Positions 6,695 to 23,375 of a stretch of 24,000 bases of DNA are shown in pieces. The position numbers and the translations under genes are program-made. This stretch comes from Glycomyces sp. NPDC021274 (GTDB lineage: Bacteria; Actinomycetota; Actinomycetes; Mycobacteriales; Micromonosporaceae). How positions within the stretch are numbered: the first letter of the stretch is position 1; every line of letters starts with the position of its first letter. A model generated the notes under the pieces. The model made no database searches. It was not told the DNA's origin and saw nothing but the letters and a program-made list of their open reading frames with translations. The stretch is from positions 85,866 through 109,865 of the forward strand of contig NZ_JBFADC010000005.1 of the NCBI RefSeq assembly GCF_040641195.1, written 5' to 3'.

Positions 6695-8629
6695 TCACTC
6701 TTTTCTCGAAGGCCGGTAGACCTCTCCACCGCCGGAACCGCCTCCGCCGGACGCCGCCGTCCCACTTTGACCACCGGCGCCGGCCGGTTGGTCGGCTCCG
6801 GTCTTCTGCTCGGGCAGGGTGTCAGTTCCGCGCGGTGTGCGCACGGTATCGGGGACCTCTTCGGGGCGCGCGTCGTCGCGGCGGCGCGAGACCCGCTCGC
6901 GCTCACGCTCGCGTTCGGCCTCGCGCTCGGATTCGGTGGTGCGTCTGCCGAGGAGCGAATCGGCCACGCCGCCGCCTGCGACGAGTCCGGCGATGCGCCT
7001 TCCTGGTCGTAGGAGCAGCCAAGCGGCGACGCCCAAGAGTCCAATGAGGACGACCTGGAGCCAGACGGGCATCGTGGTGCCCAGGATGCGGCTCGAAGCC
7101 CAGATGTAGATCACCGCAGCCAACGAGAAGATCGCGACGTTGATGATCGCCCCGAGGACCGTGTTGACCAGGCGTTTGAATGGGCCGCCAGCCGGGCGCA
7201 GCAGCGCGATCGTACCGATGATCGGCAGGGCCACGATCGCGAAGCGCACGATCATGAAGCCCAGGATGATCAGGATCGAGGCCACTAGGTCGAAGAGCGA
7301 GAAGAAGATCGCGGTCAGGAGCGCAAGGAAGCCGGTGCCGGTGCGCTCCCAGGCGCGCTGGCCGCTGATGTTGGCGTAGGCCTCAGGGTCCTCGGTCTGG
7401 ATCTGAGCGACCAGGTTGCGCCAGTTCTCTTGCTTCTCCTCGATAAGGTCGTTGCGATACGTCGCGGAGTCCTCTGCTTCGGCTTGCTCTTCCCAGGAGA
7501 AGGCTTGAGCTGCGAAGAGAGCTGGACCGTACTTGTAAGCGGCGTTGGAGTCCGTGACGACGGGGTTTCCCTCGGCGTCCTCAACTACTTTGCCGTCGCG
7601 CTCCTGGAACGTGACTTCTTCGCTCTGGCCGAGCATGGTCCGCAGCCAGTTCTGGTAGAGCACCTGCCCGGAGACGGTGTCGGAGGCGACTACAGCGGCA
7701 GTGCGGGTGTCGACGCAGAAGTCTTCGCCGTTGTTTTCCTTTAGCTCGTCGTACCGCTCCTGGTCCATACCGTCCTCGCGCCAGCAGCCCTCAACCATGT
7801 CATCGTTGATGAGCACGGTGCTGAGGTTCATGCCGATGGTCAAAGCCTGATCCGTGTATTCGGCGGCCTTGACCGGCCAGCGAACCACGGCAGTGACGAG
7901 CACGAGAATGAGCACAGCCCAGGCCACGGTCGTGACCGCGTTGTTCATGTCGGCTTGCTTTGAGCGCCAAAGCAGGTAGAGGCCGATGAGTCCTACGGTG
8001 ACCGCGCCGAAGACCGTGAAGATCTGGCGATACAGGATTTCGGTGCCCTGCTCCATGAACTCGTTGGACCAGCCCCACATGTTGTCGGGCTCCCAGGCGG
8101 CCTGCCGCATCGAGTTCGCGGCCCCGACAGTGGCGACCGATAGGTTGAACTCCATGTTCGCCAAGGCGTTCGCGGTGTCGGCACCGTTGGGGATCGACAC
8201 GGAGTCGACGCAGCCGCCGCCGATCGACATCTCTTGGGAGCCGTACATCGGAAGCTGGTAACCGGCGTACCCGTAGGCGCTATAGGTGCCGATGCCTTCG
8301 CTCTTGTCGAGCCTGCTCGGCTCGGCGAACCAACCCGCCATGCCTGAGTCCGGAGAAGCGGGCTGTGGCGCAGCCTCGCATTGAAGCTCTTGACCTGCGG
8401 GCAGCTCCTCCAGGCAACTCGACCATTCGGTGTGCCACTCGTAATCGGTGCACCCCTCCGCATCACCCTGCGCCCCAGCCATACCCGGTGTGAACACCAA
8501 GGCCCCGGCCGCCGCCGTCAGGGCGAGCAGGACCCGGCCGAGGCGTCCGGCCGCGCGTGCGGCGAGGCCTGGTAGTCGGTGTCGGGTTGATGGAGGAGCA
8601 AGGTCGTGATCGGCGGAGGGGTCGGTCAC
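6695..8629 (-). CDS. polytopic membrane protein, VirB6/TrbL/TcpH-like T4SS channel component
   Basis: GTG 8629 overlaps the ATPase stop (GTGA 8626-8629). The upstream part of the 1405-aa ORF is an Arg/Pro-rich out-of-frame shadow of the ATPase gene. The 644-aa product has a signal peptide, a Cys-containing ectodomain, about 6 TM helices with a loop of about 170 aa, and a C-terminal ERERER and Gly-rich tail. Confidence 0.8.
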   Translation of the reverse strand: MTDPSADHDLAPPSTRHRLPGLAARAAGRLGRVLLALTAAAGALVFTPGMAGAQGDAEGCTDYEWHTEWSSCLEELPAGQELQCEAAPQPASPDSGMAGWFAEPSRLDKSEGIGTYSAYGYAGYQLPMYGSQEMSIGGGCVDSVSIPNGADTANALANMEFNLSVATVGAANSMRQAAWEPDNMWGWSNEFMEQGTEILYRQIFTVFGAVTVGLIGLYLLWRSKQADMNNAVTTVAWAVLILVLVTAVVRWPVKAAEYTDQALTIGMNLSTVLINDDMVEGCWREDGMDQERYDELKENNGEDFCVDTRTAAVVASDTVSGQVLYQNWLRTMLGQSEEVTFQERDGKVVEDAEGNPVVTDSNAAYKYGPALFAAQAFSWEEQAEAEDSATYRNDLIEEKQENWRNLVAQIQTEDPEAYANISGQRAWERTGTGFLALLTAIFFSLFDLVASILIILGFMIVRFAIVALPIIGTIALLRPAGGPFKRLVNTVLGAIINVAIFSLAAVIYIWASSRILGTTMPVWLQVVLIGLLGVAAWLLLRPGRRIAGLVAGGGVADSLLGRRTTESEREAERERERERVSRRRDDARPEEVPDTVRTPRGTDTLPEQKTGADQPAGAGGQSGTAASGGGGSGGGEVYRPSRKE

Positions 8630-11600
8630 TTCGCCTCCCCGGGCGTGGTGTTCAGGTACTCGAGCAGGTTGCGGACCCAGCTGAAGTCGGCGCGGATGCG
8701 CTGCACGCGTCCGTCGACGTCGCGCATCACGAACTCGCGGTAGGGGAGCTTCTGCGTCTCCGCCGCATCCACTTCGGACAGCGAGGCGAGGACGCTCTCG
8801 TAGCCGACGCCTGTGGGCACGCGCAGCAGCTTCAGCGCCTCCTCGGCGACCTCGCGGTCCTCGGCGATGCGGCCGACGAAGACCGTGGAGACGAGGTTCT
8901 GCACGTCGAGCCCGAGGATGTCCTTCGGGTTCTGGCTCGCCACCAGCGCCGCGAGGTTCCATTTGCGGGAGTCGCGGGCCAGGCGCACCAGGAACGAGCG
9001 GCCGGACTTCCAGCCCTCCATGAAGTGCGCCTCGTCGAGGCCGACGAGCTTGCGGCGGTGCATGTCGCCGCCGTAGGCGCGGCGCACGGCCAGGCGGTGC
9101 GCGGTGTGGAGCATCGGCAGGGCCAGGGCCTCTTCGGCGCTCCAGTACTCGCGCTCGATCCCGAGGTCGGGCAGGCGCAGGCCGGACATGGTGATCACCG
9201 TGAGCGCGGTGTCGTCCTCGAGCACGCCCTTGTCCGGGCTGCCGAAGAACAGCTTCGCGAGCGGCATCTCGGCGGTGTCGAGCAGGAGCGCGGCGAGTTC
9301 GGCGCCGTCGCCGGTGGCGTGGTCCTCGGCTTCCTGCAGGGACTCGACGACGTCCTCGATGGTCGAGTCCTCCTCGGCCGGGACGTACCGGGCCGCGTGG
9401 CGCAGGAGCCGCGCCGTGGAGGCCTCGCGCTGGATCTGCGGCGGCAGGAGCATCGCGCAGATGTCCTGCACGAGCATGCGCCGTTCGCTGCGCGCGTTGG
9501 AGATCGCGATGTCGTACTCGCGCTGGCCGTCCGGGGAGTCGTCGTAGTGCTCGCGTTTCGGGGAGGGGATGAGCGCGTACGGGGCGAGCGTCCCGTGCTC
9601 CGAGCCGGTGAGGTTGAGGACCCGCGAGTACGGCTTGAGCTCGGGCATCTCGCACAGCCGCGCGAGCGGGCCCGAAGGGTCGAGGAGCGTGACCTGGACG
9701 CCGCGGCGGGCCGCGAGGTAGCCGATCGCGCCCATGAGCGTGGACTTGCCGCCGCCGGGTTCGGCGACGAAGACCGAGAGGCCGGACTTCTCGCGCACTT
9801 CGGTGGCGAAGTGCATGTCGAGGAAGACCGGGCGGCGGCAGGTGCCGGCGGTGCGGCCGATGAGGTCGCCCCGCTGGTCGCCCACAGTGGACGCGGCCTG
9901 CGGCAGGGCCGCGGCGAAGAGCTTGACGGGCATGCGGCGCACGTAGCCGGTCTGCGCGACCGGCTCGCCCGGGATGAACTCGCGGGCCAGCCAGTCCTGG
10001 TTCTTCGGGTGCTGGAGGCTGATGCGCATGTCCCGCTGGTACATCTGCATCAGCGTGCGGGCGCGCTCCAGGCACTCCTCTTTCGTGTCGGCGGTGACGG
10101 CGATGCGGTGCCAGCCGTGGGCGCGGGCGGCGTCGATCGGCAGGCCGGTGGTCATCTCGTCGCCCACGCCGAGGGCGCGTTCGGCGAGGCGCTGGAGCTC
10201 CGGCGGGGCGTCCATCGCGTGCTCGTCGTAGTCGCGCTGCTGGCTTCGGATGAGGCGCAGGCGGTGGTCGAGGTCGCGGAAGGCCTCGCCGGGGCCGAGG
10301 ATGTCGATGCGGCTCGAGAGTTCGACGGGCCAGGGGCAGCGCTCGTGGAAGTGCAGCCACGGCTCGTGGCGCTGCGGGATCTCCAGCTCCTCCATGCGCC
10401 CCACGGTGAGGACCGCGGTGTGCTTCTCCTCGCCGGTGAGGCGGTTGACGAGCTTCACCGTCGAGCCGTACGGGCTCCGGTAGCGCTCGATCGACTCGGT
10501 GAGGGCCAGGACGTCGCCGGTCTCCCACTCGCTGTTGGAGCCTGAGAGCAGGCGCGGCGGCGACATGCCGAGCGCGACGGAGCGGTAGACGAGCCATTCG
10601 AGTTCGGCGGTGGTGGCGCGGCGGGCGCGTACACCGAAGGAGCCGAGGACCTCGTCGAACTGGAGGCTGCGCTTCTCGATCTTCTCGCGCTCGGAGAGCT
10701 TGGTGCCGCGGCCGAACATGCGGCCGACCTTCTCTCCCAGCTGGTCGAGGGCGCCGCGGCGGCTGAAGGTGATGCCGAGGAAGGTCTCGCCCTCGGCGTG
10801 CGAGAGCTGCTGCAGGTGGCGCTGGGCGGCCACGAGGTGGTCGGCCCAGCTGGTGCCGCCCGGGACGGTGCGCAGCGGGCGCGCGGTGTTGCGGTCGACC
10901 GTGCGGGCCCACTCGTCGGCCGGGAACGGCCGGGTGGTGCGGCGGAGGTGGACGCGCATGCCCGCGAGGCCGGCGAACTGCTCGGCGATGGCGACGATGA
11001 GCGCCTCGCGTTCGAGGTCGGGCCGGAAGGACCAGCGCACGCCGGGCAGCTTGTACCAGGCGGTGACCGAGGCGGGCGTGAACGTGGCGTGCCCGGCGAT
11101 CTCGGTGAGGCTCAGCTCGCGGAGCGGCTGCTTCTCCTTGTCGCGGGGCAGCGGCTTGACGCGGGTCGGCTTGAGCTCGGTCGTCTGCAGCTGGGCGGCC
11201 TCGGCGCGGGCCTGCTTGACCGGGACGAGGTCCTGGCCCGGCACCCGTTGTGCACCCTTTTGTTCAGCTGCTGTACGACCTGTGGAAACATTCCCGCGCC
11301 GCTGGTCAACAGCCTGTGGATAACTCTGTCCCGGCTGTGGATAACTTCCGTTGTGCTGTGGATAACCCTGTGGATTTCCGCTGGTGGGAGCCTGTGGGTA
11401 ACGCTGTTGATACCCCTGTGGATAACTCCCCGGATTCTGTGGATAACCCTGGGGATAAGCCTGTGGACGACTCCCTGACGGAGGGGTCATCGGCGCAGGT
11501 GGCGAAGCGTGTCGGACGGAGTCCGAAGAGGAGGACGGGCGCCCGGGCGCCACCGGTGAGGGCTGGGCGGCCGGGCTCGGCTGCGTGGGGCTCGGAGCGG

Positions 11601-11823
11601 GCGGGCTCGCCGAGCGGTGCGCAATGACCGGCTCGGTGCTCTGCTTCCTGACCGGCTCCGCCCTGCTGTGCCCTTTGACGGGCTCCGCCCGAAATACCGC
11701 GTCCGCCAGCGCGGTGGCGTCGTCGCCGAGGTCGCCGGACTGCCGCTCCCGGTCCCGCACGGGTGCGGGGGGCCGGGGGGCGGAGAACTTGGCGACGGGC
11801 TGTCGGCGATCCTCGCCGCTCAT
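8626..11823 (-). CDS. VirB4/TrbE-class type IV secretion ATPase with long disordered N-terminal extension
   Basis: The 1065-aa product has Walker A VAEPGGGKST (about 9738-9755), Walker B KLVGLDEAHFM (about 9026-9049) and the motif ALVASQNPKD. An N-terminal region of about 200 aa is rich in Pro, Gln, Tyr and Ser. ATG 11823 overlaps the upstream stop (ATGA 11820-11823). Confidence 0.9.
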   Translation of the reverse strand: MSGEDRRQPVAKFSAPRPPAPVRDRERQSGDLGDDATALADAVFRAEPVKGHSRAEPVRKQSTEPVIAHRSASPPAPSPTQPSPAAQPSPVAPGRPSSSSDSVRHASPPAPMTPPSGSRPQAYPQGYPQNPGSYPQGYQQRYPQAPTSGNPQGYPQHNGSYPQPGQSYPQAVDQRRGNVSTGRTAAEQKGAQRVPGQDLVPVKQARAEAAQLQTTELKPTRVKPLPRDKEKQPLRELSLTEIAGHATFTPASVTAWYKLPGVRWSFRPDLEREALIVAIAEQFAGLAGMRVHLRRTTRPFPADEWARTVDRNTARPLRTVPGGTSWADHLVAAQRHLQQLSHAEGETFLGITFSRRGALDQLGEKVGRMFGRGTKLSEREKIEKRSLQFDEVLGSFGVRARRATTAELEWLVYRSVALGMSPPRLLSGSNSEWETGDVLALTESIERYRSPYGSTVKLVNRLTGEEKHTAVLTVGRMEELEIPQRHEPWLHFHERCPWPVELSSRIDILGPGEAFRDLDHRLRLIRSQQRDYDEHAMDAPPELQRLAERALGVGDEMTTGLPIDAARAHGWHRIAVTADTKEECLERARTLMQMYQRDMRISLQHPKNQDWLAREFIPGEPVAQTGYVRRMPVKLFAAALPQAASTVGDQRGDLIGRTAGTCRRPVFLDMHFATEVREKSGLSVFVAEPGGGKSTLMGAIGYLAARRGVQVTLLDPSGPLARLCEMPELKPYSRVLNLTGSEHGTLAPYALIPSPKREHYDDSPDGQREYDIAISNARSERRMLVQDICAMLLPPQIQREASTARLLRHAARYVPAEEDSTIEDVVESLQEAEDHATGDGAELAALLLDTAEMPLAKLFFGSPDKGVLEDDTALTVITMSGLRLPDLGIEREYWSAEEALALPMLHTAHRLAVRRAYGGDMHRRKLVGLDEAHFMEGWKSGRSFLVRLARDSRKWNLAALVASQNPKDILGLDVQNLVSTVFVGRIAEDREVAEEALKLLRVPTGVGYESVLASLSEVDAAETQKLPYREFVMRDVDGRVQRIRADFSWVRNLLEYLNTTPGEAK
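11281..11470 (-). repeat. array of DnaA-box-like 9-mers (TTATCCACA on the minus strand) inside the ATPase CDS
   Basis: There are five exact copies of CTGTGGATAAC on the plus strand, at 11314-11324, 11335-11345, 11356-11366, 11416-11426 and 11437-11447. The minus strand reads GTTATCCACAG. Six degenerate copies lie at 11281, 11369, 11393, 11405, 11450 and 11462. All are in one orientation, with spacings of 12, 21 or 24 bp. They encode (G/S)YPQ peptide repeats using the codons GGT/AGT, TAT and CCA. Confidence 0.85.
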
Positions 11824-12918: not shown

Positions 12919-13752
12919 ATGGACTACATCGACGACATCGCCGGGCGGCTGACCGCCGCCGCGATCGCCTTCGCCGTCGCCGGTCTCGCCGTCGCCGCCC
13001 TCTCCGCCGCCGCCCTCGGCGGAGTGCGGGCCTCCGAGAAGTGGCCCTCCGCCCCCGTCCCGCGCCTCGGCCGCCCCGCCGTCATGGCCGGCGCACTCCT
13101 CGGCCTCGTCATGTTCGCCCTCGCCGCAGGGCTTTTCTCCTTGGCGCAGTTCGGCACCGGGCTCAACGCGAACCTGCGGGTGCTCCTGGCGGTCGGCGTC
13201 GACCTCGCCGCCCTCGCCCTCGGATTGTGGTTGGTGAGCTACGTTGCGGGGAACGTCGAGATGCGCACGCTCATCAACGTGCCCGACCAGCCGATGAACC
13301 CGCCGCCGATCCCGGTGTCGGGCGACCCGACCCGCTACCAGATGCCGGACTACACGGAGACCCCCATGGAACCCGAGCCGCAGGACTACCCGCACACCGC
13401 ACCGGAACCGCGCCACCCGCAGCAGTACCAGCAGGCCTACTCCGAACCGCGGTCGCCGTACGCGCCCGACACCGCCGCCACCGGCAGCCTCCCCGCCGCC
13501 CGCTCCAAAGTCCCGACCATCCCCACCGACACCCGGCCCGGCTGGGTCTTCCAGGACCGCGGCACCGGCGCCTACTACGCCGCCGTCGCCCAGAGCCGCG
13601 GCGGCATCAGCCTCCTCGCCCTCGACGACTTCACCGTCGCCCGCACCGCCTCCCTCGTCGGCCCCCTCGAACTCGTCGGCTCCGTCGAAGCCACCGTGTG
13701 GCCCTTGGAGAACGGCGAGAACGGCAGGACCGAGGCCGAAGCCGAACAATGA
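12919..13752 (+). CDS. membrane protein with Pro/Gln/Tyr-rich linker (hypothetical)
   Basis: The 277-aa ORF is GC3-rich. It has 3-4 TM helices in the first ~115 aa, then a P/Q/Y-rich linker that uses the usual TAC/CCG codons, then a C-terminal domain of about 90 aa. The antisense 386-aa ORF is a Gly/Arg shadow. Confidence 0.75.
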   Translation: MDYIDDIAGRLTAAAIAFAVAGLAVAALSAAALGGVRASEKWPSAPVPRLGRPAVMAGALLGLVMFALAAGLFSLAQFGTGLNANLRVLLAVGVDLAALALGLWLVSYVAGNVEMRTLINVPDQPMNPPPIPVSGDPTRYQMPDYTETPMEPEPQDYPHTAPEPRHPQQYQQAYSEPRSPYAPDTAATGSLPAARSKVPTIPTDTRPGWVFQDRGTGAYYAAVAQSRGGISLLALDDFTVARTASLVGPLELVGSVEATVWPLENGENGRTEAEAEQ

Positions 13753-13765
13753 GTGAACACTGCGG

Positions 13766-14052
13766 TCAGTCGGCCGCGGGCGCGCAGGTGATCCTCAGCA
13801 GATAGGGGTCGAGGTCGTTCTCGGCGTCGACGGCCCCGATGCCCGCTCGCCGCAGGACCGTCTGCACGCGTGCGGTGGCCGCCGTCAGATCGTCGTCGAG
13901 GTCGAACTCGTGCCGACCGGCGCCTGCGGCTCGGCGGTCGCCGGCCCGGAGGTTCGCATTCGACTCGAGGCCGATCTCGCCGCCGAAAGCGCGTCGGACA
14001 CCAGCCCCGCAACCCGCTCGAGCTTCTTCGGCGAAGCCTGCTCAAGACTCAT
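13766..14052 (-). pseudogene. frameshifted paralogue of the deaminase immunity gene (orphan immunity remnant)
   Basis: Translation from ATG 14052 gives MSLEQASPKKLERVAGLVSDAL, which matches MSLDQASDDELERVRGLVADAL at the start of 16530-16919. After about 13985 the homology continues only in the -1 frame: DDDLTAATARVQTVLRRAGIGAVDAENDLDPYLLRITCAPAAD matches DDEAQAVNARLQAALRAAGIESEDAENDFAPYLLRIVSAPGTA, ending at TGA 13768-13766. The middle part is also shorter. An alternative upstream ATG at 14121 overlaps the preceding stop (TGATG). Confidence 0.6.
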
Positions 14053-14120
14053 CGACGATGCCGTCCAACCGGACCGGGCCGCGCCGCCGAATCGCTCCTT
14101 CGGCGCTGAGCCGCCGCCCA

Positions 14121-14354
14121 TCAGCGCGTGGTCGGATCGTCCATGACCCGGCTGTACAGCTCGGCGCACGCCTCGTCCTCGGTCGCGAAGACCTCCTCGT
14201 AAGCCCGCTCGCCGCGCTGCGAATAGTAGACGGCCCAGCCGTTCTCGCGCTGCTCCAGCGTATGGCTCTCGTTCGGCAGCCCGCCCTCGAGCCAGTAGGT
14301 GTTCTCGCGTACGCCCTCGGCTTCGAGCAGGCGGGCGAGGTCGTTCTTCTTCAT
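14121..14354 (-). CDS. putative immunity protein for the TNT-like toxin
   Basis: The product is 77 aa. ATG 14354 has an AAGGTG Shine-Dalgarno and lies 10 nt after the toxin stop. The protein is small, acidic and cytoplasmic in appearance (MKKNDLARLLEAEGVRENTYWLEGG...). The role is inferred from position only. Confidence 0.7.
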   Translation of the reverse strand: MKKNDLARLLEAEGVRENTYWLEGGLPNESHTLEQRENGWAVYYSQRGERAYEEVFATEDEACAELYSRVMDDPTTR

Positions 14355-14364
14355 GGCAGGCACC

Positions 14365-14880
14365 TTACAGTCGAGTGAGCTTCGAATACCCGGACGCATC
14401 AGGTTTCAGCAGGTCTTTTACCGCGGACGGCAGCTTGTACTGCGTCCCCATGCCCGGCTCGCCGAACCACGGCGCGATGGTCGCCTCGTCCACCTCGATG
14501 TCCTCGTTCAGCCGGAACCTGCTGTACGGCGACGACCTGCCTTCGGGCGGCATCGCCCGCTGCTCGAACGGGATCCCGTCGGGCGAGGTGTAGTCGCCCC
14601 AGTCGCTGCCGTACCGGTCGATGATCGTGCCCTTGGGCAGGGTGACCTTCCGGGAAGGGCCGAGCGCGCCCGCATCCGGCGGCCAGTTGAGGTCGCCCCG
14701 GGGCAGGCCCGGAGCGGGCGGCGTGTCCCGGTCGCCATGGCCGGGACCGGGATTGGAGCCTATCGGTGAGGGGCCGGTCATCCACTGCTTGTGCAGATCG
14801 GCCATGGTGGGCGCGGACGAGGCCGACGAGCGGCGGGCGCTGCTGCGGGGCAGGCCGCCTGGATGCTTTCCAGTCGTCAT
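14365..14880 (-). CDS. stand-alone TNT-domain (tuberculosis necrotizing toxin-like) NAD+ glycohydrolase toxin
   Basis: The product is 171 aa. The C-terminal ~95 aa read IIDRYGSDWGDYTSPDGIPFEQRAMPPEGRSSPYSRFRLNEDIEVDEATIAPWFGEPGMGTQYKLP. This follows the TNT/DUF4237 pattern as I recall it: DRyG..G.f.sp.g.p...RalPp, then iapwFgqpGgg.Qy. The N-terminal ~75 aa are Pro/Gly/Ser-rich and low in complexity. Confidence 0.85.
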   Translation of the reverse strand: MTTGKHPGGLPRSSARRSSASSAPTMADLHKQWMTGPSPIGSNPGPGHGDRDTPPAPGLPRGDLNWPPDAGALGPSRKVTLPKGTIIDRYGSDWGDYTSPDGIPFEQRAMPPEGRSSPYSRFRLNEDIEVDEATIAPWFGEPGMGTQYKLPSAVKDLLKPDASGYSKLTRL

Positions 14881-15046
14881 GGGGGTGCGGACCTTCCGTG
14901 GGGGAACCCGGAAGCGGGGTTATCCAGCAAACTAGACCAGCGGTGCCAGTACCACCGTCGTGGCCGCCGATTCCGTGCGCACCAGCCCTGGCGGGCCGGT
15001 GCTAGCCTGACCGCACAGCACCACCGCACCCCCGAGGAGGCTTGAC

Positions 15047-15394
15047 GTGTTCGGTCTCGTGCAAGTCGAAAGCCAGGCGATACGCAGCGCTTCCAGCCGG
15101 ATGAAGCAGTTCGCGAGCCAGGCGAAGAGCCTTCCCCAGAACGCGGTCCAGGCCGCGCAGCGAGCCGAGAGCGCCAACCGGGGATTCATGTGCGCCGACG
15201 GCGCCAAGGACTTCGCCGACGACCTCGAAGAGGACATGAAGGACCTCAACGAGCACCTGGAGGACACCGCCGAAGTCCTCGAGGACATCGCCGACCACTG
15301 GGACCGCGCGGACGAGGACGCCGCCGCCGACTTCAAGCCGATCGGCTCCGAACTGAGCGGCTTCAACGTCCCCACCATCCCCGGAGGAGCGTGA
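15047..15394 (+). CDS. small acidic helical ESX/WXG-like protein (hypothetical)
   Basis: GTG 15047 lies 6 nt after GGAGG. The 115-aa product is predicted all-helical with an HWDRAD turn in place of a clear WxG. It is the first gene of the plus-strand operon. Confidence 0.7.
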   Translation: MFGLVQVESQAIRSASSRMKQFASQAKSLPQNAVQAAQRAESANRGFMCADGAKDFADDLEEDMKDLNEHLEDTAEVLEDIADHWDRADEDAAADFKPIGSELSGFNVPTIPGGA

Positions 15395-15398
15395 CGCG

Positions 15399-15929
15399 AT
15401 GCCGACCTTCCAGCAGTGCCTCGACGCCAACCCCGCCCAGCTCATGACCCTCGGCGCCTCCATCGCCGGGGCCGCCGCGCAGCTGACCCAGCTCGGCGCG
15501 ACCTACGGCCAGACCGTCGCCGGCCTCGCCGCCTCCTGGCAGGGCAAGGACTACCAGGAACTCGTCAAATGGTCCACAGAGGTCGGTCTGTTCATCGGCC
15601 GCAGCGACGCCGCGATGCTCACCTGCGCCGGCGCCCTCGAAGGCACCGGCGCCGCCCTCATGGCCACCTGCTTCGCCATGAAGGCCACCAAGCAGGCCGC
15701 CGAAGCCGTCGGCTACAAGGTCCTGCCTACCCCGTTCGTGATCCTCGGCCCCAGCCAGTGGTCCCAGGTCTCCTCGGCCGGACCCGCCGCCCCGGCGGTC
15801 CTCGCCGCCTACCAGTCCGGCGCGATCGCGTTCACCACCGCGCTGGTCTCCATGTACACCGCGGTCATCGCCCAGGACACCGCCGGGTACGCGATCATCC
15901 GCACCGCCCTCGCCCTGAGCCCGTCGTAG
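15399..15929 (+). CDS. WXG100-like protein with C-terminal extension
   Basis: The 176-aa product has a helix-turn-helix with W-x-G (LAASWQGKDYQEL) and then a hydrophobic helical extension rich in Ala, Gly and Thr. A GGAGGAG Shine-Dalgarno lies upstream. Confidence 0.8.
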   Translation: MPTFQQCLDANPAQLMTLGASIAGAAAQLTQLGATYGQTVAGLAASWQGKDYQELVKWSTEVGLFIGRSDAAMLTCAGALEGTGAALMATCFAMKATKQAAEAVGYKVLPTPFVILGPSQWSQVSSAGPAAPAVLAAYQSGAIAFTTALVSMYTAVIAQDTAGYAIIRTALALSPS

Positions 15930-15941
15930 AAAGCCCGGCCC

Positions 15942-16502
15942 ATGACGACGAGCAAGCACGGCAGTCCGCTCCCCAGCAGCAATGCCCGCAAGCCGGTGCA
16001 CGCCAACGCGACCACACTTGCGACCGCACCGAACTTCCGCCGCACCATCGGAACCCGCGTCGGCTACGGAGAGACGCCGCTCGGACGGCATGTCGCCGAC
16101 ATGCGGCAGGTGCGGCACCGACCGCCGCCGCCCACGCTCGACCCGGGCATGGGCCGAAACATCGCGGCTGCACGGCTCAGCGACGGCAGCGTGATCGACG
16201 GCGTGAGCGGCAACCCCCACGGATGCTCCGAGAACGAGATCCAGGGCAAGCTCGACGCGCTCAACAACGGGCGGACACCACCGTTGAAGATCGAGGAGCT
16301 CTATACGGAGCGCCAGCCGTGCTGCAACTGCGAGAACCTGATGAACACCAAGCACTCCGGAGCCGACGTGAACTGGACTGTCGAACACTTCGACGTGCCG
16401 GGTACGCCCTCTACTCCCGAGGAGGCGAAGGCACTCCGTCAGCTGAAGAACCTCGAAACGGCCGAGCTGAAGCGCGCGGCGTACACGTACCATGGCATCT
16501 GA
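15942..16502 (+). CDS. stand-alone nucleic-acid deaminase-fold toxin (CxE ... PCxxC)
   Basis: The product is 186 aa. The C-terminal ~110 aa carry the zinc-deaminase signature HGCSENE, then 28 aa, then QPCCNCE. This is compact, like the bacterial toxin deaminases (SCP1.201/DddA-like clade suspected). The N-terminal ~75 aa are low in complexity. An immunity-like gene follows. Confidence 0.8.
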   Translation: MTTSKHGSPLPSSNARKPVHANATTLATAPNFRRTIGTRVGYGETPLGRHVADMRQVRHRPPPPTLDPGMGRNIAAARLSDGSVIDGVSGNPHGCSENEIQGKLDALNNGRTPPLKIEELYTERQPCCNCENLMNTKHSGADVNWTVEHFDVPGTPSTPEEAKALRQLKNLETAELKRAAYTYHGI

Positions 16503-16529
16503 TCCCGAACAGCGAGAAGAGGTCCCTCG

Positions 16530-16919
16530 GTGAGTCTTGACCAGGCGTCCGACGACGAATTGGAACGGGTGCGCGGCCTGGTGGCGGACGCGTTGGAGTC
16601 GGCGGGCATCCGCTGGCAGTTGCATGAGAAGCCGCAGTCGTACGCGGTCGCGCAAGTGACCATCGACTACGGCCGGGACTCCGGCCGCGGCGTGTTCGTC
16701 TCCTGGGAGCAGAGCCTCGCCGAGCACGAGTCGCTCATGCGCCTCGTCCGCGAAGGCGACCACATGAACCCGCGCATCCTCGCCGCAGACGACGAGGCCC
16801 AAGCAGTCAACGCGCGGCTCCAGGCGGCGCTGCGCGCGGCCGGCATCGAATCCGAGGACGCCGAGAACGACTTCGCCCCCTACCTGCTGCGAATCGTCTC
16901 CGCCCCGGGCACCGCCTAG
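16530..16919 (+). CDS. putative deaminase immunity protein
   Basis: GTG 16530 is the first start codon after the toxin stop, 27 nt downstream. The product is a 129-aa acidic cytoplasmic protein. A decayed paralogue lies at 13766-14052. The role is inferred from position. Confidence 0.75.
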   Translation: MSLDQASDDELERVRGLVADALESAGIRWQLHEKPQSYAVAQVTIDYGRDSGRGVFVSWEQSLAEHESLMRLVREGDHMNPRILAADDEAQAVNARLQAALRAAGIESEDAENDFAPYLLRIVSAPGTA

Positions 16920-16944
16920 TACCCGGCCACGACTGGAGCTCCAC

Positions 16945-17655
16945 ATGACCCCCGCTGAAGACCCCAAGCCGTTCGAGTTCGCGGTGCCCGAGGACTACGA
17001 GCGGCACATCGACGAGGCGCGGGCCGCGCTCGACGTCGTGCCCCGCAACGAGAACTGGGAGAACGCCCAGCGCGTCCTCGCCGACCCGCCCAGCCGTGAA
17101 GCGATCGAGGCCGCACAGCGCGAAGCCGCCGAGGCCATGGCGATGCTCGCCGCGTTCCAGCAGGCCCGCCACACCGGCTACGACCCCGACCAGACCACCA
17201 AGGTCGTCATCGACGCCGCCGGGGAACTGCGCGAACTCGAATTCGGCGTCGACGCCGTCCGCCTGGGCAACCACGGCCTCGCCGACGCCATCGGCCTCGC
17301 CTGGGCCGCGGCACAGGACGCGCGCGCCGAGAGCCAAGGCGACTACACCTCGCGCACCGGCGCGCTCGGCGGCGGCAACACCCCCGCCGAGCAGGTGCTC
17401 GCCGACATCGAGTTCGCCCTCAGCGCCCGCGAGCACGAGCGCTTCGGGGCCACCACCGAGGACGGGCTCACCAAACTCGCCGTCAACCTGCGCGGACGCC
17501 TCACCGAGGTGGTGTTCCTGCAGAACAACGTCCTCAACCTCACCGACCGCCACACCCTCGCCGAACAGCTCACCGCCGCCGTGCAGCGGGCGCAGTCGGA
17601 CGCGGCGGCCGTCGTCGGCGAGATCGGCGCCGCCCACTACGCCCGGTTGGGATAG
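16945..17655 (+). CDS. tandem YbaB/EbfC-like domain protein
   Basis: The 236-aa product has two YbaB-type cores: TKVVIDAAGELRELEFGVDAVRLGNHGLADAIGLAWAAAQ and LTKLAVNLRGRLTEVVFLQNNVLNLTDRHTLAEQLTAAVQRAQ. Confidence 0.8.
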   Translation: MTPAEDPKPFEFAVPEDYERHIDEARAALDVVPRNENWENAQRVLADPPSREAIEAAQREAAEAMAMLAAFQQARHTGYDPDQTTKVVIDAAGELRELEFGVDAVRLGNHGLADAIGLAWAAAQDARAESQGDYTSRTGALGGGNTPAEQVLADIEFALSAREHERFGATTEDGLTKLAVNLRGRLTEVVFLQNNVLNLTDRHTLAEQLTAAVQRAQSDAAAVVGEIGAAHYARLG

Positions 17656-17772
17656 CGCCCGCCGCGGCGGTGAGCTGCTCTAACGGCCGCCCCTACCGCT
17701 CGTGCAGCGGTGCGCTCCGCACGCGTTTGTTCGGTATTGTCATGGTGACGTCCACCGAAGTGAGCCGCCGCT

Positions 17773-18531
17773 GTGACCGATCCCGGCCAGACTTTCACCG
17801 ACATCGATGAATATGTGACGCTGCGCCTCGACGACGACAAGATCATCGTCGCGGTGACGGCCGCCGGTTTCCGCCAACCCCCGAGCACCATCGCACGCCT
17901 GGTCACCGAACTCGCCGCCCGGCTGCCCCGCCCCGGCGCCGAAGCCGACGCCGCGGTCGCCAACGGCATCAAGGCCATCGGCGAACTCCAGGACGCCGCC
18001 GCCACCGGCGGCTACGAGGCCTTCGCCGCCATGATGCGCGGGCGCCTCGGCATCGGCGGCGTCGCCAGCCCGATCGGCCCCAACACCCTCAGCCGCGACC
18101 CCGAGCACGACCGCGCCCTCGCCGGCCACCTCGACGGCGTCCTCAAGACCATGCGCGCCGCCCAGACCGCCCGCACCGGGCCCGCCGCCGACCGCGACCA
18201 CCTCGACGTCAAAGTCCACAGCGACGAAGGCGACCTCAGCGTCACCGCCAGCGCCGAACGCGCCGTCGCCGCCGTCTGGATCGGACCCACCGCCCGCCAG
18301 CGGGGCCTCGACGGCCTCGGCCGGGCGCTCACCGACCTCATCGCCCGCGCCCGCGACGAACTGCGCCGCGCAGCAGAGCAGCGCGCCCGGGACACCCTCC
18401 CCGCCGACCTCGCCCGCAAGACCGAGCAGGCCCCCGCCGCCGCCGACCGCGCCACCCGCGCCGCCGGGGACATGGCCGAACGCGTCCAGCAGCTCAGCGA
18501 CAGCATCCAGCGAAAGGCAGGACCCCGATGA
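17773..18531 (+). CDS. hypothetical protein with a possible N-terminal YbaB-like core and an Ala/Arg-rich helical C-terminus
   Basis: GTG 17773 has only a weak Shine-Dalgarno. The 252-aa ORF has high GC3 and contains VTLRLDDDKIIVAVTAAGFRQPPSTIARLVTELAA near its N-terminus. The stop overlaps the next start (ATGA 18528-18531). Confidence 0.65.
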   Translation: MTDPGQTFTDIDEYVTLRLDDDKIIVAVTAAGFRQPPSTIARLVTELAARLPRPGAEADAAVANGIKAIGELQDAAATGGYEAFAAMMRGRLGIGGVASPIGPNTLSRDPEHDRALAGHLDGVLKTMRAAQTARTGPAADRDHLDVKVHSDEGDLSVTASAERAVAAVWIGPTARQRGLDGLGRALTDLIARARDELRRAAEQRARDTLPADLARKTEQAPAAADRATRAAGDMAERVQQLSDSIQRKAGPR

Positions 18532-18833
18532 CCCGCGTCTTCGACAGCGAATTCGTCCGGCAGCTCGGCGCCGACATCGAGGCCAAGGTGGTCCCGATCC
18601 TGGAGAGCACCGACGAGTACCTCCAGGTCATGAGCGAGATCGACCGCGGCCTCTACACCACCGTCACCCTCCCCATGGCCGCCGCCTACTCCATCGCCAC
18701 GTCCACCGTCACCGAGTCCATGGCCGGAGCCGCCGCATGCTTCCGCGAGGTCAACGCCGCACTTGACGCGTGCGCGCAGGATATGGACGACACCGACGAA
18801 GCCTGCGCCACCGCGTTCGGCGCGAACGGATAG
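18528..18833 (+). CDS. small helical ESX-like protein (hypothetical)
   Basis: The product is 101 aa, acidic and predicted helical. The gene is translationally coupled to the upstream gene. Confidence 0.7.
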   Translation: MTRVFDSEFVRQLGADIEAKVVPILESTDEYLQVMSEIDRGLYTTVTLPMAAAYSIATSTVTESMAGAAACFREVNAALDACAQDMDDTDEACATAFGANG

Positions 18834-18845
18834 GAGCGGGCGACC

Positions 18846-19817
18846 ATGTCAACGGGGCAGAGCATCATGGAGGCCGGGGAGGCGATGGCCGGTGAGTACA
18901 ACGCCGTCATCAAGGGCTGCGCCATCGGCATCGCCGCGCCCGCCATCGCCTTCGGGCTCTCCACGCAGGCGCTCGCCACCGTCGTCTACCTCAACCAGTG
19001 CAACCCCGGCGACATCATGAAAGGCGCCGGCGCCTGGATCGCCTTGGCGGAGAAGAACCTCGAAGCGGTCGAAGCGCTCCAGGCCGAGGTCGACAAGGTC
19101 GACGACGAGCACTGGTCGGGCGCCGACGCCGAAGCGTTCAAAGCCGCCTCCGGGGACGTGAAGGCCCAGCTCACCCAGCTCGCCGTCAACGCCTACCTCG
19201 TCGGCGCGCAGCTGCTCGCGTTCGCGGTGATGCTCACCGTCTTCTGGATGTTCCTCACCGCCGCCACCGCCATCATGGCCGTCTACTTCGGCGCGTACAT
19301 CGCGGCCCTGTCGGGCGTCGTCAGCGCCGTCGGCGCCCCCGCGATCATGGCCAGCGCGAACGTCACGGCCGCCTCCCTGCTGGCCACCGCCAAGAGCTTC
19401 GAGGCCACCCTCATTTCCATCTCGACCGGGTGCGCGGCGATCACCGGTGCGATGTCGGTGTTCACGTTCGCGTTCCAGAAGTCCCAGGGCAACCCGGTCT
19501 CGCCGCTCGACATCGCCGGCGCGGGCCTGGCCAACATGCTCGAGGGCCTGCTCGTGTACGGCATCAACGCCGCCACGATGACCTCGGGCGGGCGGCACGC
19601 CACGGGGGCGCTGGCCAGCGGCTGGGCGCTCGCGGGGCACCTCACCCAGGCCGCCTCGACGTTCTTCCCCGCGTACAAGGGCGAGGACGACGGATGGGAG
19701 GCCGGGTTCGACGGCGGCGGGCCGCTGCTCGGCGTCCCCGACTCGGCGCTCAACTGGCTGTGGGAGGACAACGCGCCCGAGTCGATGAAGAACCCCGAAG
19801 ACCTGGACTGGTCCTGA
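18846..19817 (+). CDS. WXG100-like domain fused to a multi-helix hydrophobic region
   Basis: The 323-aa product has W-x-G at DDEHWSGADAEAF within a helix-turn-helix. About 150 aa of hydrophobic helices follow (LLAFAVMLTVFWMFLTAATAIMAVYFGAYIAAL...), then an acidic, Trp-rich tail. GGAGCGGG lies upstream of the ATG. Confidence 0.8.
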   Translation: MSTGQSIMEAGEAMAGEYNAVIKGCAIGIAAPAIAFGLSTQALATVVYLNQCNPGDIMKGAGAWIALAEKNLEAVEALQAEVDKVDDEHWSGADAEAFKAASGDVKAQLTQLAVNAYLVGAQLLAFAVMLTVFWMFLTAATAIMAVYFGAYIAALSGVVSAVGAPAIMASANVTAASLLATAKSFEATLISISTGCAAITGAMSVFTFAFQKSQGNPVSPLDIAGAGLANMLEGLLVYGINAATMTSGGRHATGALASGWALAGHLTQAASTFFPAYKGEDDGWEAGFDGGGPLLGVPDSALNWLWEDNAPESMKNPEDLDWS

Positions 19818-21172
19818 TGCGCACCGGGAGCCCTTCGTTCCGGCCGCCGCGGCCGGGCTGGGAGATCGCCCGCATCGGCGAGCCGCGCCCGGCGGACGGC
19901 GGCGTGCTGGACCTGCGGGTCGGCCACTGCGGCGGCGCGACCGACAAGACGCCGGCCCAAGCGGCGGTGAACATCTCGGAGCGCCGGAAGGCGGGCGACC
20001 CGATCGCCGTCTGGAGCGACCTGCGGTCGAGCCTCGTCCCGGTCGTGCTCGTCGACGGCACGCCGGTCGCGACCGGCTGGGGCCGCATCGAACTGCCGCT
20101 CCCCGCGGGCCGGCACCTGATCGAGGTGCAGAGCCAGCACTCGCGCACGTGGCGGGCGTTCGACATCGCGGCGGGGAAGGCCACGAAGCTCGACTACATC
20201 GGGATGCTCGGCGAAGCGCACCGGGCGTACGGCGAAGCGGAGCTGCGGTGGAACCTCCAGGGCCTGCACGGGCACACGGTGGGGCCGCGCGGGCGTCTGA
20301 ACTACTTCCAGTACCTGCCCGCGAACGCCAAGGAGCGCAAAAGCTTCCTCGCTTTCATGCTCGCGGCGCTCGTAGGCGCGACGCTCTCGGCCGCGCTCGC
20401 GTACGCGGGCGTCCCGGCCGGCATCGCGATCCCGGCGGGCGCCGTCATCTGGGCGAGCGCCCTGGCGGCGTGGGGGATCAGGGTCCTGTGGACGCACCTG
20501 CGGTACAACCGGCTCGCGCCCGAAGCGCCGCTCGACACGCGCCCGTTCACCCGCGGCACGGCCGCGCCGCTCGTGCTCGACGCCGACGGGGACCTGCCCG
20601 AACTGGGGCCGGGGGCGGCGGCGGTGCTCCTCGACGCGCGGTTCCTGAAGGCCGACCTCGCCTCCGACGAGCTGGCGCTGCAGCTGCCCGAAGGCCAGGA
20701 CCGCATCGACGGGAAGCAGGCCAAGGCGTTCAACGCGGTCGGCGAGGTCGTCCCGATCCGGCACCGGTACGCCGTGCCGCCGCCGGAGGTCCTGCTCGAC
20801 GGGGTCGCCTTGGGGGCCTTCTGGACCCGCATGTGGCTCGCGGTGCCGCCCGGGACGCACCGGCTCGAGGTGCGCACGCCGGCCGCGCCGCTCCCGGTCG
20901 AAGGGCGGGCGCATCAGCCGCACACCGCCGTCGCCACGGTCAACGTCGACGCGGGCGAGGTCGCCCGGGTCGACCTCTCGGTCACGGTGACCGCGGTGCC
21001 CGACCCGCTGCGTCCCGTGCTGCACCTCTGGCACTGCCGCATCGACCGGCTCGGCCCCGCCGCGGCGCACGAGGCGCCCGCCGTTCCGAGGGCCGACGTC
21101 CGCGGCGGCCTGCGCCGCGCCGTCACGGGCCGGTACTGGGAGACCAAAGACGACATTCCTCCCACGCGGTGA
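19817..21172 (+). CDS. membrane protein with two PEGA-like beta-sandwich repeats flanking a TM hairpin
   Basis: ATG 19817 overlaps the upstream stop by 1 nt (TGATG). The first 273 aa of the 724-aa ORF-track entry are an out-of-frame shadow of 18846-19817. The 451-aa product contains VDGTPVATGWGRIELPLPAGRHLIEVQ and LDGVALGAFWTRMWLAVPPGTHRLEVR on either side of two TM helices. Confidence 0.75.
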   Translation: MRTGSPSFRPPRPGWEIARIGEPRPADGGVLDLRVGHCGGATDKTPAQAAVNISERRKAGDPIAVWSDLRSSLVPVVLVDGTPVATGWGRIELPLPAGRHLIEVQSQHSRTWRAFDIAAGKATKLDYIGMLGEAHRAYGEAELRWNLQGLHGHTVGPRGRLNYFQYLPANAKERKSFLAFMLAALVGATLSAALAYAGVPAGIAIPAGAVIWASALAAWGIRVLWTHLRYNRLAPEAPLDTRPFTRGTAAPLVLDADGDLPELGPGAAAVLLDARFLKADLASDELALQLPEGQDRIDGKQAKAFNAVGEVVPIRHRYAVPPPEVLLDGVALGAFWTRMWLAVPPGTHRLEVRTPAAPLPVEGRAHQPHTAVATVNVDAGEVARVDLSVTVTAVPDPLRPVLHLWHCRIDRLGPAAAHEAPAVPRADVRGGLRRAVTGRYWETKDDIPPTR

Positions 21173-21260
21173 TCACGGTCTTTCGCGAGGTTCCATCGAT
21201 GGCGCCTTGTTGCTACCGTGAACCCGTCCGGTCACCCCTGAAGCCGCGAGGTGCGTATCG

Positions 21261-22862
21261 ATGAGCGACAACTCGAGTGCGTCCTACCCTGGACTCGACG
21301 CCGCCGCGCCGGCCATGGGTGCCCCCGCGTTCGGCAGTGCCGCGCCGCCCGCGGCGCCTCCGCCGCCCCCGCCTCCCGCTGACGAGACGGTCGCCCCGCC
21401 GGTGGCCGAGGAGAGCCTCCCCGCTGGCCGCACGCCCTGCTCGAACCCCAACTGCGGCAACCCGACCGAGCACCCCGCCGAACTGGACTGGCAGCAGCTC
21501 GTCTCGGCCGTGCCCGTCACGGGCCAGCTGTACCGCCTGCGCCCCAAGGAAGCCGGGATGGCGTTCCCGACCGAGGCCGACTTCCGCGCGGCCGTCGCCG
21601 CCGTGCGGCCCGAGCGCGCCGACGCGCACTCGCTCGAGCACCTGCGCAACGCCTGGAGCGAGAACGTGACCGGGCGGATCGCCGACTGGTCCGAGCAGAT
21701 CAAGTCCAACCTGAACGAGCTCGCCGAAGGCTGGTCGGGCACCGACTTCGAGGCCTTCGAGGCCACATGCACGCAGACGCGCGAACTCGTCGACGACCTG
21801 GTCGACGACATCGACGCCACCGTCGCCAACCTGCAGTCCACTGAGGAGGCGCTCTACTCGATCCAAGGCGGCAGCTCGGGCGAGATCCCGTACCCCGCAC
21901 CGCAGTTCTGGATCGACGGCGACTGGCACAGCTGGGTGTCGGTGCATGTGCGGCCCGCGTGGTGGCACGGCGACTGCATCGAGTACACCTGCCAGGACGC
22001 CGAGCACGTGCTCGCCCTCGGCGGCGCCGAACCCGAGCTCGCCACCGAGATCATCGACTACATCGACGAGCGCATCCTCCACTACATCGACTACTACGCC
22101 AGCCCCGTCAACATCGAGCGCGACGGCCTCGACCCCACGAAGGGCCTCACAGTCGTGGAGGCCAAGGAGCTCGCCGTCGCCGACGCGATGGAGCACTACG
22201 GGACCCTCGTCGACCAGAGCTGGGGCGCGTACGACGCCCGCCAAGCAGAGTCCAATGAGGACATTCAGCAGCGGAGCACCGACACCGATGCCGAGGACCG
22301 CTCCGTGCGGACCGTGCACAGCGACAAGGAGTACCCGCCGTCCGCCGACCCGGCGTACATGAACCTCGAACCCCCGCCGATGGAGCAGCCCAGCGGCAGC
22401 GCGCAGCCCATGGCCAGCGAAGACCCCTCGCTCGACCCGCCCGTCGGCGAGACCCCCGCCGAACCGGTCGACCCAGCGGCGCCCGACGATCCCGCGGAGG
22501 ACGACGGCGAGGAGCCGAGCGGCGGCCTGGCGAGCGGCGGCGCGGGCACGGGCACCGCGGGCGGCTTCGGCGGAGGAGGCGGCGGCGGTTTCGGCGCTGG
22601 TGCCGTACCTGCAAGTGCCACTTCGGGTTCCGGCGCTTCGATGGGCGGCGCCCTCGGCGGCGCGGCCCTCGGCGCGGCAGCGGGCGGTGCCGCGGCCGCC
22701 ACGGGATCGCGCGGCTCCGCGGCCATGATGAGCGGTGGCGGCGGGGCGGGAGCCGGGCGCGGCATGAACATGGACGACAAGGACCGCGAACCGGACGTCG
22801 ACCTGGTCGAGGACGAGAACATGTGGGGCTTCGTCAACGAGGACGACGACCCCTACGCTTAA
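21261..22862 (+). CDS. large mosaic WXG-like protein (Pro-rich N-terminus, WXG helix pair, Cys/Trp-rich domain, Gly/Ala-rich tail)
   Basis: The product is 533 aa, with a GAGGTG Shine-Dalgarno upstream. It contains PPPPPPP and CSNPNCGNPTEH near the N-terminus and W-x-G at LAEGWSGTDFEAF. A Gly/Ala/Ser low-complexity region of about 90 aa follows (about 22500-22770). The C-terminus is acidic (EDENMWGFVNEDDDPYA). Confidence 0.8.
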   Translation: MSDNSSASYPGLDAAAPAMGAPAFGSAAPPAAPPPPPPPADETVAPPVAEESLPAGRTPCSNPNCGNPTEHPAELDWQQLVSAVPVTGQLYRLRPKEAGMAFPTEADFRAAVAAVRPERADAHSLEHLRNAWSENVTGRIADWSEQIKSNLNELAEGWSGTDFEAFEATCTQTRELVDDLVDDIDATVANLQSTEEALYSIQGGSSGEIPYPAPQFWIDGDWHSWVSVHVRPAWWHGDCIEYTCQDAEHVLALGGAEPELATEIIDYIDERILHYIDYYASPVNIERDGLDPTKGLTVVEAKELAVADAMEHYGTLVDQSWGAYDARQAESNEDIQQRSTDTDAEDRSVRTVHSDKEYPPSADPAYMNLEPPPMEQPSGSAQPMASEDPSLDPPVGETPAEPVDPAAPDDPAEDDGEEPSGGLASGGAGTGTAGGFGGGGGGGFGAGAVPASATSGSGASMGGALGGAALGAAAGGAAAATGSRGSAAMMSGGGGAGAGRGMNMDDKDREPDVDLVEDENMWGFVNEDDDPYA

Positions 22863-22901
22863 CGCACCCCGTCCCTGAAACCTTCGGAAAGGAACCCTGA
22901 G

Positions 22902-23240: not shown

Positions 23241-23249
23241 TCCTGACGC

Positions 23250-23274
23250 GGCCCAACGCGCATCGCGTGGGGCC
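23250..23274 (+). terminator. GC-rich hairpin after the 22902-23240 gene
   Basis: The hairpin is GGCCCAACGCG-CAT-CGCGTGGGGCC (11-bp stem, one mismatch) and begins 10 nt after the stop. An AT-richer stretch follows (TTGAAC...TATATGATGAG) before the next gene. There is no U tract. Confidence 0.4.
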
Positions 23275-23375
23275 CGTGAGTGCTGCTGGGGCACAAGTGA
23301 TCGTTGAACCCGGACATTTGCCATGTCGGTATATGATGAGTGATCCTCAGATACCACAAGGCAACTGGAGATCAC

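Follow-up and report, generated by a model that had tools for sequence, protein, structure and literature searches.

The stretch of DNA analysed here (the window: 24,000 nucleotides from Glycomyces sp. NPDC021274) carries an array of DnaA-box sequences inside the gene of a VirB4/TcpF-like ATPase, and comparison with orthologous genes indicates that purifying selection acts strongly on the DNA of its 9-mers throughout the Glycomycetaceae. The array is probably bound by DnaA. We lean towards explaining it, mode of action included, as a non-origin DnaA-box cluster of the datA and DBC (DnaA-box cluster) kind, lodged in DNA that codes for a disordered N-terminal linker of the ATPase.

The array comprises 11 boxes in about 190 bp, all arranged head to tail on the coding (minus) strand of the ATPase gene (Table 1). 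Five are exact copies of TTATCCACA, which match the DnaA-box consensus, written TT(A/G)TCCACA for actinomycetes, at 9/9 positions, and six are near copies with one or two mismatches; the original prediction had counted them in the same way. Its assignment of the host gene is likewise borne out: the product is taken to be VirB4-like because it matches Pfam AAA_10 (PF12846; 4.6e-23) and the NCBIfam conjugal-transfer ATPase family TcpF (6.6e-23). The array lies in the low-complexity extension formed by the N-terminal ~225 residues. Start-to-start spacings of the boxes are 12, 12, 21, 12, 12, 24, 12, 21, 21 and 34 bp. Matches to TTATCCACA with at most one mismatch number seven, against 0.93 expected (0 of 100 shuffles reached seven), and no further match of this quality lies outside the array in the 24-kb window. 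Several consensus boxes within a few hundred base pairs, in a layout that would suit cooperative binding, is the arrangement that marks a non-origin cluster.

The exact boxes are read as GGT or AGT followed by TAT CCA CAG, giving (G/S)YPQ. The claim that the copies encode this peptide holds for the exact copies, but the last near copy lies in a different frame. As predicted, the exact copies use rare A/T-ending codons: the background shares of TAT, CCA, GGT and AGT within their codon families in the window are 7.2%, 8.7%, 10% and 5.3%, and the G+C content at third codon positions (GC3) falls from 0.95–1.0 to 0.45–0.5 across codons ~100–195 of the ATPase gene. The gene at 12919–13752, proposed earlier as an internal control, encodes each of its 10 Tyr residues with TAC, and its sole Y-P pair is TAC CCG. 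The G+C content of the window is 68%, with a minimum at the array.

Constraint on these codons was assessed in a set of orthologues containing one genome per species: 19 Glycomyces species, one related metagenome-assembled genome, several Stackebrandtia and about 54 Micromonosporaceae and related actinomycetes. In an unbiased scan, 37 of 1031 codon columns ended in A or T in at least 80% of 21 sequences, and 32 of the 37 fall within a single island that contains the array. The wobble codons of the boxes are identical in 286 of 287 same-residue comparisons; elsewhere in the ATPase gene the same measure is 30% where the codon ends in A or T and 82% where it ends in G or C. On a neighbour-joining tree, parsimony places one change at the 15 wobble sites of the exact boxes, where ~29 would be expected (Poisson P ~1e-11). 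Synonymous third positions of the ATPase gene outside the boxes have a mean of 1.92 changes per site, and 3.52 where they end in A or T. Synonymous change at the box wobble sites is suppressed approximately 30-fold, which agrees with the earlier suggestion that selection acts on the nucleotides and not only on the peptide.

The variation that is tolerated has the same character. The T preceding TAT is held across the codons GGT, AGT, GCT and CGT; replacements of Tyr are His (CAT) or Arg (CGT), both still ending in T; and the base following the 9-mer alternates, as CAG or CAA. In the alignments the constraint is on the 9-mer and not on the residue, and selection seems to protect the DNA rather than the protein at the boxes.

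Selection on the messenger RNA or on translation might leave a comparable trace, if rare codons slowed ribosomes in the linker (timing folding or membrane assembly) or if UUAUCCACAG were the target of a small RNA or of a protein that binds RNA. We judge this improbable. It would fit the presence of all copies on the coding strand, with 10 of 11 in one frame, and the richness of the entire 260-bp island, not the boxes alone, in A/T-ending codons, which are retained at 79% outside the exact boxes. The retained codons outside the boxes, however, are mostly in near-boxes, and selection for rarity would permit one rare codon to be swapped for another, whereas the identity of the codons is fixed and the wobble T persists across four amino acids. 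One copy is out of frame, and relatives carry the motif in non-coding DNA as well. A conserved rare-codon cluster acting as a translational pause was rejected, as codon identity rather than rarity is conserved and one copy is out of frame. A structured RNA element gains no support either: the array has no Rfam match at E ≤ 1, and its RNA fold is unremarkable (z = -1.5), the repeats being invariant and so uninformative on covariation. No complementary partner sequence for the repeats was found in the window, nor was an internal promoter of the sigma-70 type found.

Every one of the 23 Glycomycetaceae sequences in the comparison carries the array locus. Each of the 20 Glycomyces loci has four to six exact boxes, at relative positions 0, 21, 81, 102 and 123 and with identical codons, and no exact box occurs outside the array in the ~15-kb loci of the Glycomyces orthologues. 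Three Stackebrandtia (L023, L024 and L081) have five exact boxes each, in the same part of the gene and in the same orientation, frame and codons; the trio at 21-bp phase is kept there, while the spacers and the surrounding linker are unrelated to those of Glycomyces. Across the 20 Glycomyces and three Stackebrandtia the rare codons (G/A)GT-TAT-CCA-CA(G/A) are retained, and the spacers and neighbouring residues differ. The conserved block starts and stops exactly at the limits of the 9-mer, and only 9–11 nt of each 21-bp unit are conserved. At the protein level, a Haloglycomyces protein (P0007) retains two YPQ.

Two outcomes that had been named in advance as counting against a role of the DNA are absent from this comparison. 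YPQ is not recoded with TAC/CCG, xxT-TAT-CCA being found in all 20 Glycomyces and three Stackebrandtia, and the array is not a slippage expansion private to one strain, the same positions and spacing recurring family-wide. On this ground, and with the box wobble sites static, a private expansion or foreign insert was rejected. The broader idea that there is no DNA-level function, the array being a foreign or slippage-derived YPQ repeat that keeps its ancestral codons and was perhaps homogenised by gene conversion, is scarcely credible. It is true that the peptide block is conserved and that tandem 12- and 21-bp units are typical products of slippage. The array is nevertheless identical in two genera whose surrounding linker otherwise cannot be aligned, and other synonymous sites have turned over at 1.9–3.5 changes per site, which the box sites have not. 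Since the spacers differ, the units (11 nt) are too short for gene conversion.

The array region itself is still translated: GC3 upstream of it is 0.9, the first 30 residues of the protein are conserved, and of the 211 gap runs in a DNA-level alignment 171 have lengths that are multiples of three. The annotation of start codons is inconsistent among relatives: the Stackebrandtia albiflava protein P0011 (1021 amino acids; L024 4831–9498) begins downstream of the boxes although the open reading frame (ORF) spans them, and the annotated ATPase of S. endophytica (1438 amino acids) takes in the array. Other tandem repeats occur in the same linker. In the window, a 27-bp unit (AEPV..) is repeated upstream of the array at 11637–11690. 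A 33-bp unit, GGCGAGCGTGCGAGCCG.. (GERASR), also upstream of the array, is common to the three Stackebrandtia species (L024 5484–5582; L023 5734–5788; L081 codons 45–61), and a Stackebrandtia metagenome-assembled genome (L021 219–684) has eight 48-bp repeats encoding P(A/P)SGQHP(T/A)VP. No boxes are found within the L021 contig, which may end before the array.

To what extent the layout resembles that of arrays associated with DnaA can be seen from metagenomes, which were scanned for trios of boxes at 21-bp phase. The scan returned at least 120 stretches, and 80 loci were analysed, most of them on short contigs; they have 28–65% G+C and are mostly non-coding in appearance. A dnaA gene (Pfam Bac_DnaA and Bac_DnaA_C) adjoins the array in 19 of the 80. 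In these 19 loci A is found at position -2 in 85% of boxes and G at -1 in 59%, and the second commonest spacing is 12 bp. Neither the flanks nor the 12-bp spacing was imposed by the search pattern, and both agree with the Glycomyces array. The rare Ser codon AGT would be preferred there because it supplies the AG before the box.

In Escherichia coli, chromatin immunoprecipitation followed by sequencing finds DnaA in vivo almost solely on head-to-tail pairs of boxes 2–3 bp apart, typically an imperfect box followed by a perfect one, as in datA, cTTGTAAACAgagTTATCCACAg (PMC11317965). Pairs of this imperfect-plus-perfect type are present in the window (cTTATCCCCAgggTTATCCACAg and aAAATCCACAgggTTATCCACAg) and in Stackebrandtia (aATATCCACAgggTTATCCACAg). 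In the neighbouring family Micromonosporaceae, the oriC of Actinoplanes has 24 boxes of the form TT(G/A)TCCACa (PMC3364876). Among the roles listed in the original prediction, binding of DnaA is the best supported, because the conserved block has exactly the limits of the 9-mer and the layout matches both the dnaA-adjoining arrays and the double boxes of E. coli.

Some other protein that recognises a specific DNA sequence, for instance a nucleoid protein or one that regulates the secretion operon, might have a site that coincides with the DnaA box. Exact copies lying 75–110 bp upstream of genes for proteins resembling type VII secretion system (T7SS) substrates have the look of sites for an activator or a repressor, the array is flanked by a second invariant motif, CGACACGC..CCACCTGCG, and the actinobacterial high-affinity DnaA box is usually given as TTGTCCACA. 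We know of no actinobacterial regulator with this 9-mer as its site. Such a protein would have to match DnaA in all nine positions and in spacing grammar. The conserved block coincides exactly with the 9-bp DnaA consensus and has variable flanks, and the extended context and the 12- and 21-bp spacings recur beside dnaA in unrelated bacteria. Sites of MtrA (GTCACAGCG), raised for the shared CACAG, were rejected, as they leave the conserved TTAT and the free bases after position 9 unexplained. DnaA, moreover, itself works as a transcription factor at promoter-proximal boxes (PMC11317965). Another binder thus appears unlikely.

The copies upstream of T7SS-substrate-like genes are exact TTATCCACA, single or paired 34–35 bp apart, and lie close to this operon in one Stackebrandtia, in Virgisporangium and in two metagenome-assembled genomes (L036 13621 and 13655; L053 13527 and 13562; L040 13931; L064 14119; L023 4896). 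Their flanks vary and the 9-mer is constant; they may be DnaA-regulated promoters. In some metagenome loci a 21-bp trio of TTATCCACAG lies in real genes, and the opposite strand reads V-D-N repeats. One trio (L116 3514–3564, minus strand) is in a 2-oxoacid dehydrogenase E2 acyltransferase gene, in the linker between the second lipoyl and the E3-binding domains; another (L158 787–837) is in a gene for a DUF1376 replication-organiser-like protein; and a third (L083 6425–6475) forms a threefold VDNFSTP repeat in a replication-organiser-like gene that has no Pfam match. Linker-coding DNA may be a common hiding place of DnaA-box arrays.

The Glycomyces array does not have the surroundings of a chromosomal origin. 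There is no dnaA or dnaN in the 24-kb window and no DnaA-like ORF in the related loci L001–L080; an A+T-rich unwinding element is also lacking, the minimum GC being 0.58 and the DNA coding throughout. The array as chromosomal oriC was rejected because dnaA and an unwinding element are missing, and for the same reasons its presumed mode of action is placed with that of the non-origin clusters. Evidence on an origin-proximal position, in which copy number would rise soon after initiation, is indirect. In complete Micromonosporaceae genomes (Dactylosporangium, Longispora) the orthologous operon lies 0.3–1.07 Mb (4–8%) from the start of the record. Frankia has a single conserved VirB4-like gene 35–96 kb from dnaA, its orthology to the ATPase gene being unchecked (PMC2266912).

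It is highly improbable that the array is a DnaA-dependent replication origin, or part of a transfer origin, embedded in a gene of an integrated conjugative element. The operon does encode a type IV secretion-like set (the VirB4-like ATPase, an M23 peptidase and a membrane protein of the VirB6-like CD3337/EF1877 type), small Streptomyces plasmids carry distant homologues of the ATPase, and two of the metagenome loci (L158 and L083) carry the box trio in replication-organiser-like genes. The plasmid relatives, however, are weak (66–71% identity over 4–18% of the gene, on small Streptomyces and Nonomuraea plasmids), and none spans the array. The operon is near-identical in the 19 named Glycomyces and the related metagenome-assembled genome, and has ~75% protein identity across the Micromonosporaceae; this conservation across the Glycomycetaceae and Micromonosporaceae sampled indicates vertical chromosomal inheritance. 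No Rep or relaxase gene was seen in the window, integrases and tRNA attachment sites lying outside that search, and the A+T-rich region that unwinding would need is missing. Conservation of only part of each unit is unlike iterons. Plasmid or phage iterons, one of the roles first proposed, were rejected, as whole units are not conserved, no Rep gene was found and the locus occurs in every readable species, 23 in all.

If the array is a non-origin cluster, host DnaA would bind the five consensus boxes via its C-terminal domain and spread cooperatively to adjacent weak boxes, some of them in pairs 3 bp apart and others two helical turns apart. The outcome would be a complex of ~10 protomers on ~190 bp inside a transcribed gene. 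Non-origin clusters lower the DnaA available at oriC, and origin-proximal clusters that restrain initiation are known in Bacillus subtilis and have been reported for Streptomyces coelicolor (PMC3245932). By analogy, the consequence that we prefer, though only tentatively, is a DnaA sink or inactivation site restraining re-initiation, like datA, the B. subtilis DBCs and Streptomyces D78. A second choice, which we regard as rather doubtful, is DnaA-dependent throttling of transcription of the ATPase operon; it would be compatible with a role as a sink.

The (G/S)YPQ repeats would then largely be what the boxes encode in a linker that tolerates them. Their probable origin is an ordinary repeat of the GYPQ type, each unit of which underwent three synonymous changes, from GGC TAC CCG to GGT TAT CCA. 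As only three such changes separate GGC TAC CCG CAG from a perfect box with the preferred flanks, such a linker could have been converted with the protein unchanged, and the YPQ peptide would afterwards have been locked in by the DNA. Taken as a whole, a family-wide DnaA control locus inside a coding gene, either a counterpart of datA and the DBCs or a switch tying the type IV secretion-like machine to replication, with the YPQ peptide passive, is a serious possibility that we stop just short of calling likely.

Several observations weigh against this interpretation. The clusters of datA and B. subtilis are intergenic, and the Glycomyces array is coding. The YPQ peptide block is conserved too, leaving room for some peptide-level selection, and the copies are all on one strand and nearly all in one frame, as an effect on RNA or translation would also give. 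The conserved CGACACGC..CCACCTGCG beside the array is not accounted for by DnaA. The Micromonosporaceae orthologues have no array, with at most two TCCACA per 300 bp, and because of this the array is, among the genomes compared, not intrinsic to the operon. Finally, the high-affinity box reported for Mycobacterium tuberculosis and S. coelicolor is TTGTCCACA and not TTATCCACA (PMC4285127).

Table 1. Features of the box array and its host gene in the window (strand minus throughout; fractions are of the 21 sequences aligned).
Feature	Position	Strand	Sequence or product	Remarks
VirB4/TcpF-like AAA_10 ATPase gene	8626–11823	-	1065 amino acids	
Island of conserved A/T-ending codons	11253–11514	-		Full extent of nucleotide-level constraint; GC down to 0.58
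Flanking motif	11494–11514	-	CGA CAC GC .. CCA CCT GCG	Just upstream of the array; not box-like; rare codons CGA, CCA and CCT each kept 21/21
Box array	11281–11470	-	Five exact and six near copies of TTATCCACA	
Exact boxes	11438–11446, 11417–11425, 11357–11365, 11336–11344, 11315–11323	-	TTATCCACA	
Box trio at 12-bp phase	11437–11471	-	TCGTCCACA 11462–11470, TTATCCCCA 11450–11458, exact TTATCCACA 11438–11446	Codons GGT-TAT-CCA of the exact box invariant, 21/21
Double box, 3-bp spacer	11450–11458 and 11438–11446	-	cTTATCCCCAgggTTATCCACAg (TTATCCCCA and exact TTATCCACA)	
Exact box	11416–11426	-	AGT TAT CCA CAG	21 bp after the preceding exact box; TAT and CCA kept 21/21, AGT 20/21
Weaker box pair, 3 bp apart	11392–11414	-	GTATCAACA 11405–11413, TTACCCACA 11393–11401	GTATCCACA or CGTCCACA in several orthologues; wobble T survives Tyr to Arg (CGT)
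Double box	11356–11378	-	AAATCCACA 11369–11377, ggg, exact TTATCCACA 11357–11365	AAT-CCA kept in 20–21/21
Exact boxes 11336–11344 and 11315–11323	11314–11345	-	TTATCCACA	Form a trio at 21-bp phase with box 11357–11365
Box-like sequence	11281–11289	-	GTTTCCACA	Other reading frame, GTT TCC ACA (V-S-T); kept in 16–18/21 Glycomyces with A/T-ending GTT and ACA; Stackebrandtia counterpart is an exact box

The motif that flanks the array is shared beyond the genus: CGACACGC and (C/T)CACCTG(C/G)G are also present, near-invariant, in the three Stackebrandtia. Its GACAC resembles the WhiA motif; a second factor may bind here, or the likeness may be accidental.

Downstream of the ATPase gene and in the same direction lie the genes of the CD3337/EF1877-type membrane protein and the M23 peptidase. 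An ORF of 1405 codons at 6695–10912 (minus strand) extends into the ATPase gene in a different frame. The 3' part alone (6695–8629) is real and corresponds to the VirB6-like gene, and the remainder is an artefact, stop codons being scarce in high-G+C DNA. Identity of the ATPase orthologues is 82–96% within Glycomyces and ~75% in Micromonosporaceae over the core. The original prediction took Streptomyces as its frame of reference, which proved misplaced, the organism being a Glycomyces and the best matches the 82–96% identical Glycomyces proteins. Next to the type IV-like operon, genes of type VII secretion style follow one another at 12919–23777 (plus strand), with 14365–14880 on the minus strand. 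This run includes an EspC-like gene (15047–15394), a WXG100-like gene (21261–22862), a PPE-like gene (18846–19817) and four for YbaB-domain proteins, together with genes for a TNT toxin (14365–14880, minus strand) and an XOO_2897-like deaminase (15942–16502). The region 12919–23777 looks like a polymorphic-toxin neighbourhood.

DnaA-box clusters as such are known. What would be new, from the sequences compared here, is a cluster that is embedded in coding DNA, extends family-wide and shapes a peptide repeat; our literature search found no paper on DnaA boxes maintained within a gene through constraint on its synonymous sites. Non-origin DnaA-box clusters are considered one of the main means by which re-initiation is restrained in bacteria that lack SeqA and Hda. 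To our knowledge very few such clusters have been characterised, with D78 the only one in actinobacteria. If the proposal is correct, it adds a cluster that is invisible to gene-centred annotation and maintained purely via synonymous sites, and a case in which a regulatory DNA code dictates the low-complexity sequence of a protein and not the reverse. The sites can be destroyed with the protein unchanged, which would make for a clean experiment. There is also a warning for high-G+C genomes, in which odd codon islands may be protein-binding DNA rather than horizontally acquired sequence.

Among known systems, the origin of phage lambda offers a precedent for the location of the array. It lies inside gene O, and its iterons bind the product of that gene and fire the origin. 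In both cases initiator-binding repeats, putative ones in the Glycomyces array, are found in DNA coding for an inter-domain linker, and one sequence would thereby serve as binding sites and as coding sequence. The presumed binder of the Glycomyces array, however, is the host initiator, the gene is that of a secretion ATPase, and there is no sign of origin activity.

The datA locus is intergenic, requires an IHF site and stimulates hydrolysis of DnaA-bound ATP. The Glycomyces cluster differs in being coding, and no IHF-type site was seen there, although none was specifically looked for. Like the array, datA is a cluster of consensus TTATCCACA outside oriC (Stringer, Fitzgerald and Wade 2024, PMC11317965), and cTTGTAAACAgagTTATCCACAg of datA and cTTATCCCCAgggTTATCCACAg of the window both consist of an imperfect box, 3 bp and a perfect box followed by G. 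The oriC arrays adjoining dnaA (L088, L098, L130 and others) share with the window the form (A/G)AG-TTATCCACA-G, the head-to-tail order and the 12- and 21-bp spacings. Unlike these and the Actinoplanes origin (PMC3364876), the window is without dnaA or dnaN, an unwinding element and inverted boxes, and its array is in an expressed gene. According to Okumura et al. 2012 (PMC3245932), many Firmicutes and Actinobacteria have DnaA-box clusters close to oriC; the D78 cluster of S. coelicolor is cited in that paper (Smulczyk-Krawczyszyn et al. 2006). The DBCs of B. subtilis lie between genes, whereas the Glycomyces array lies inside one.

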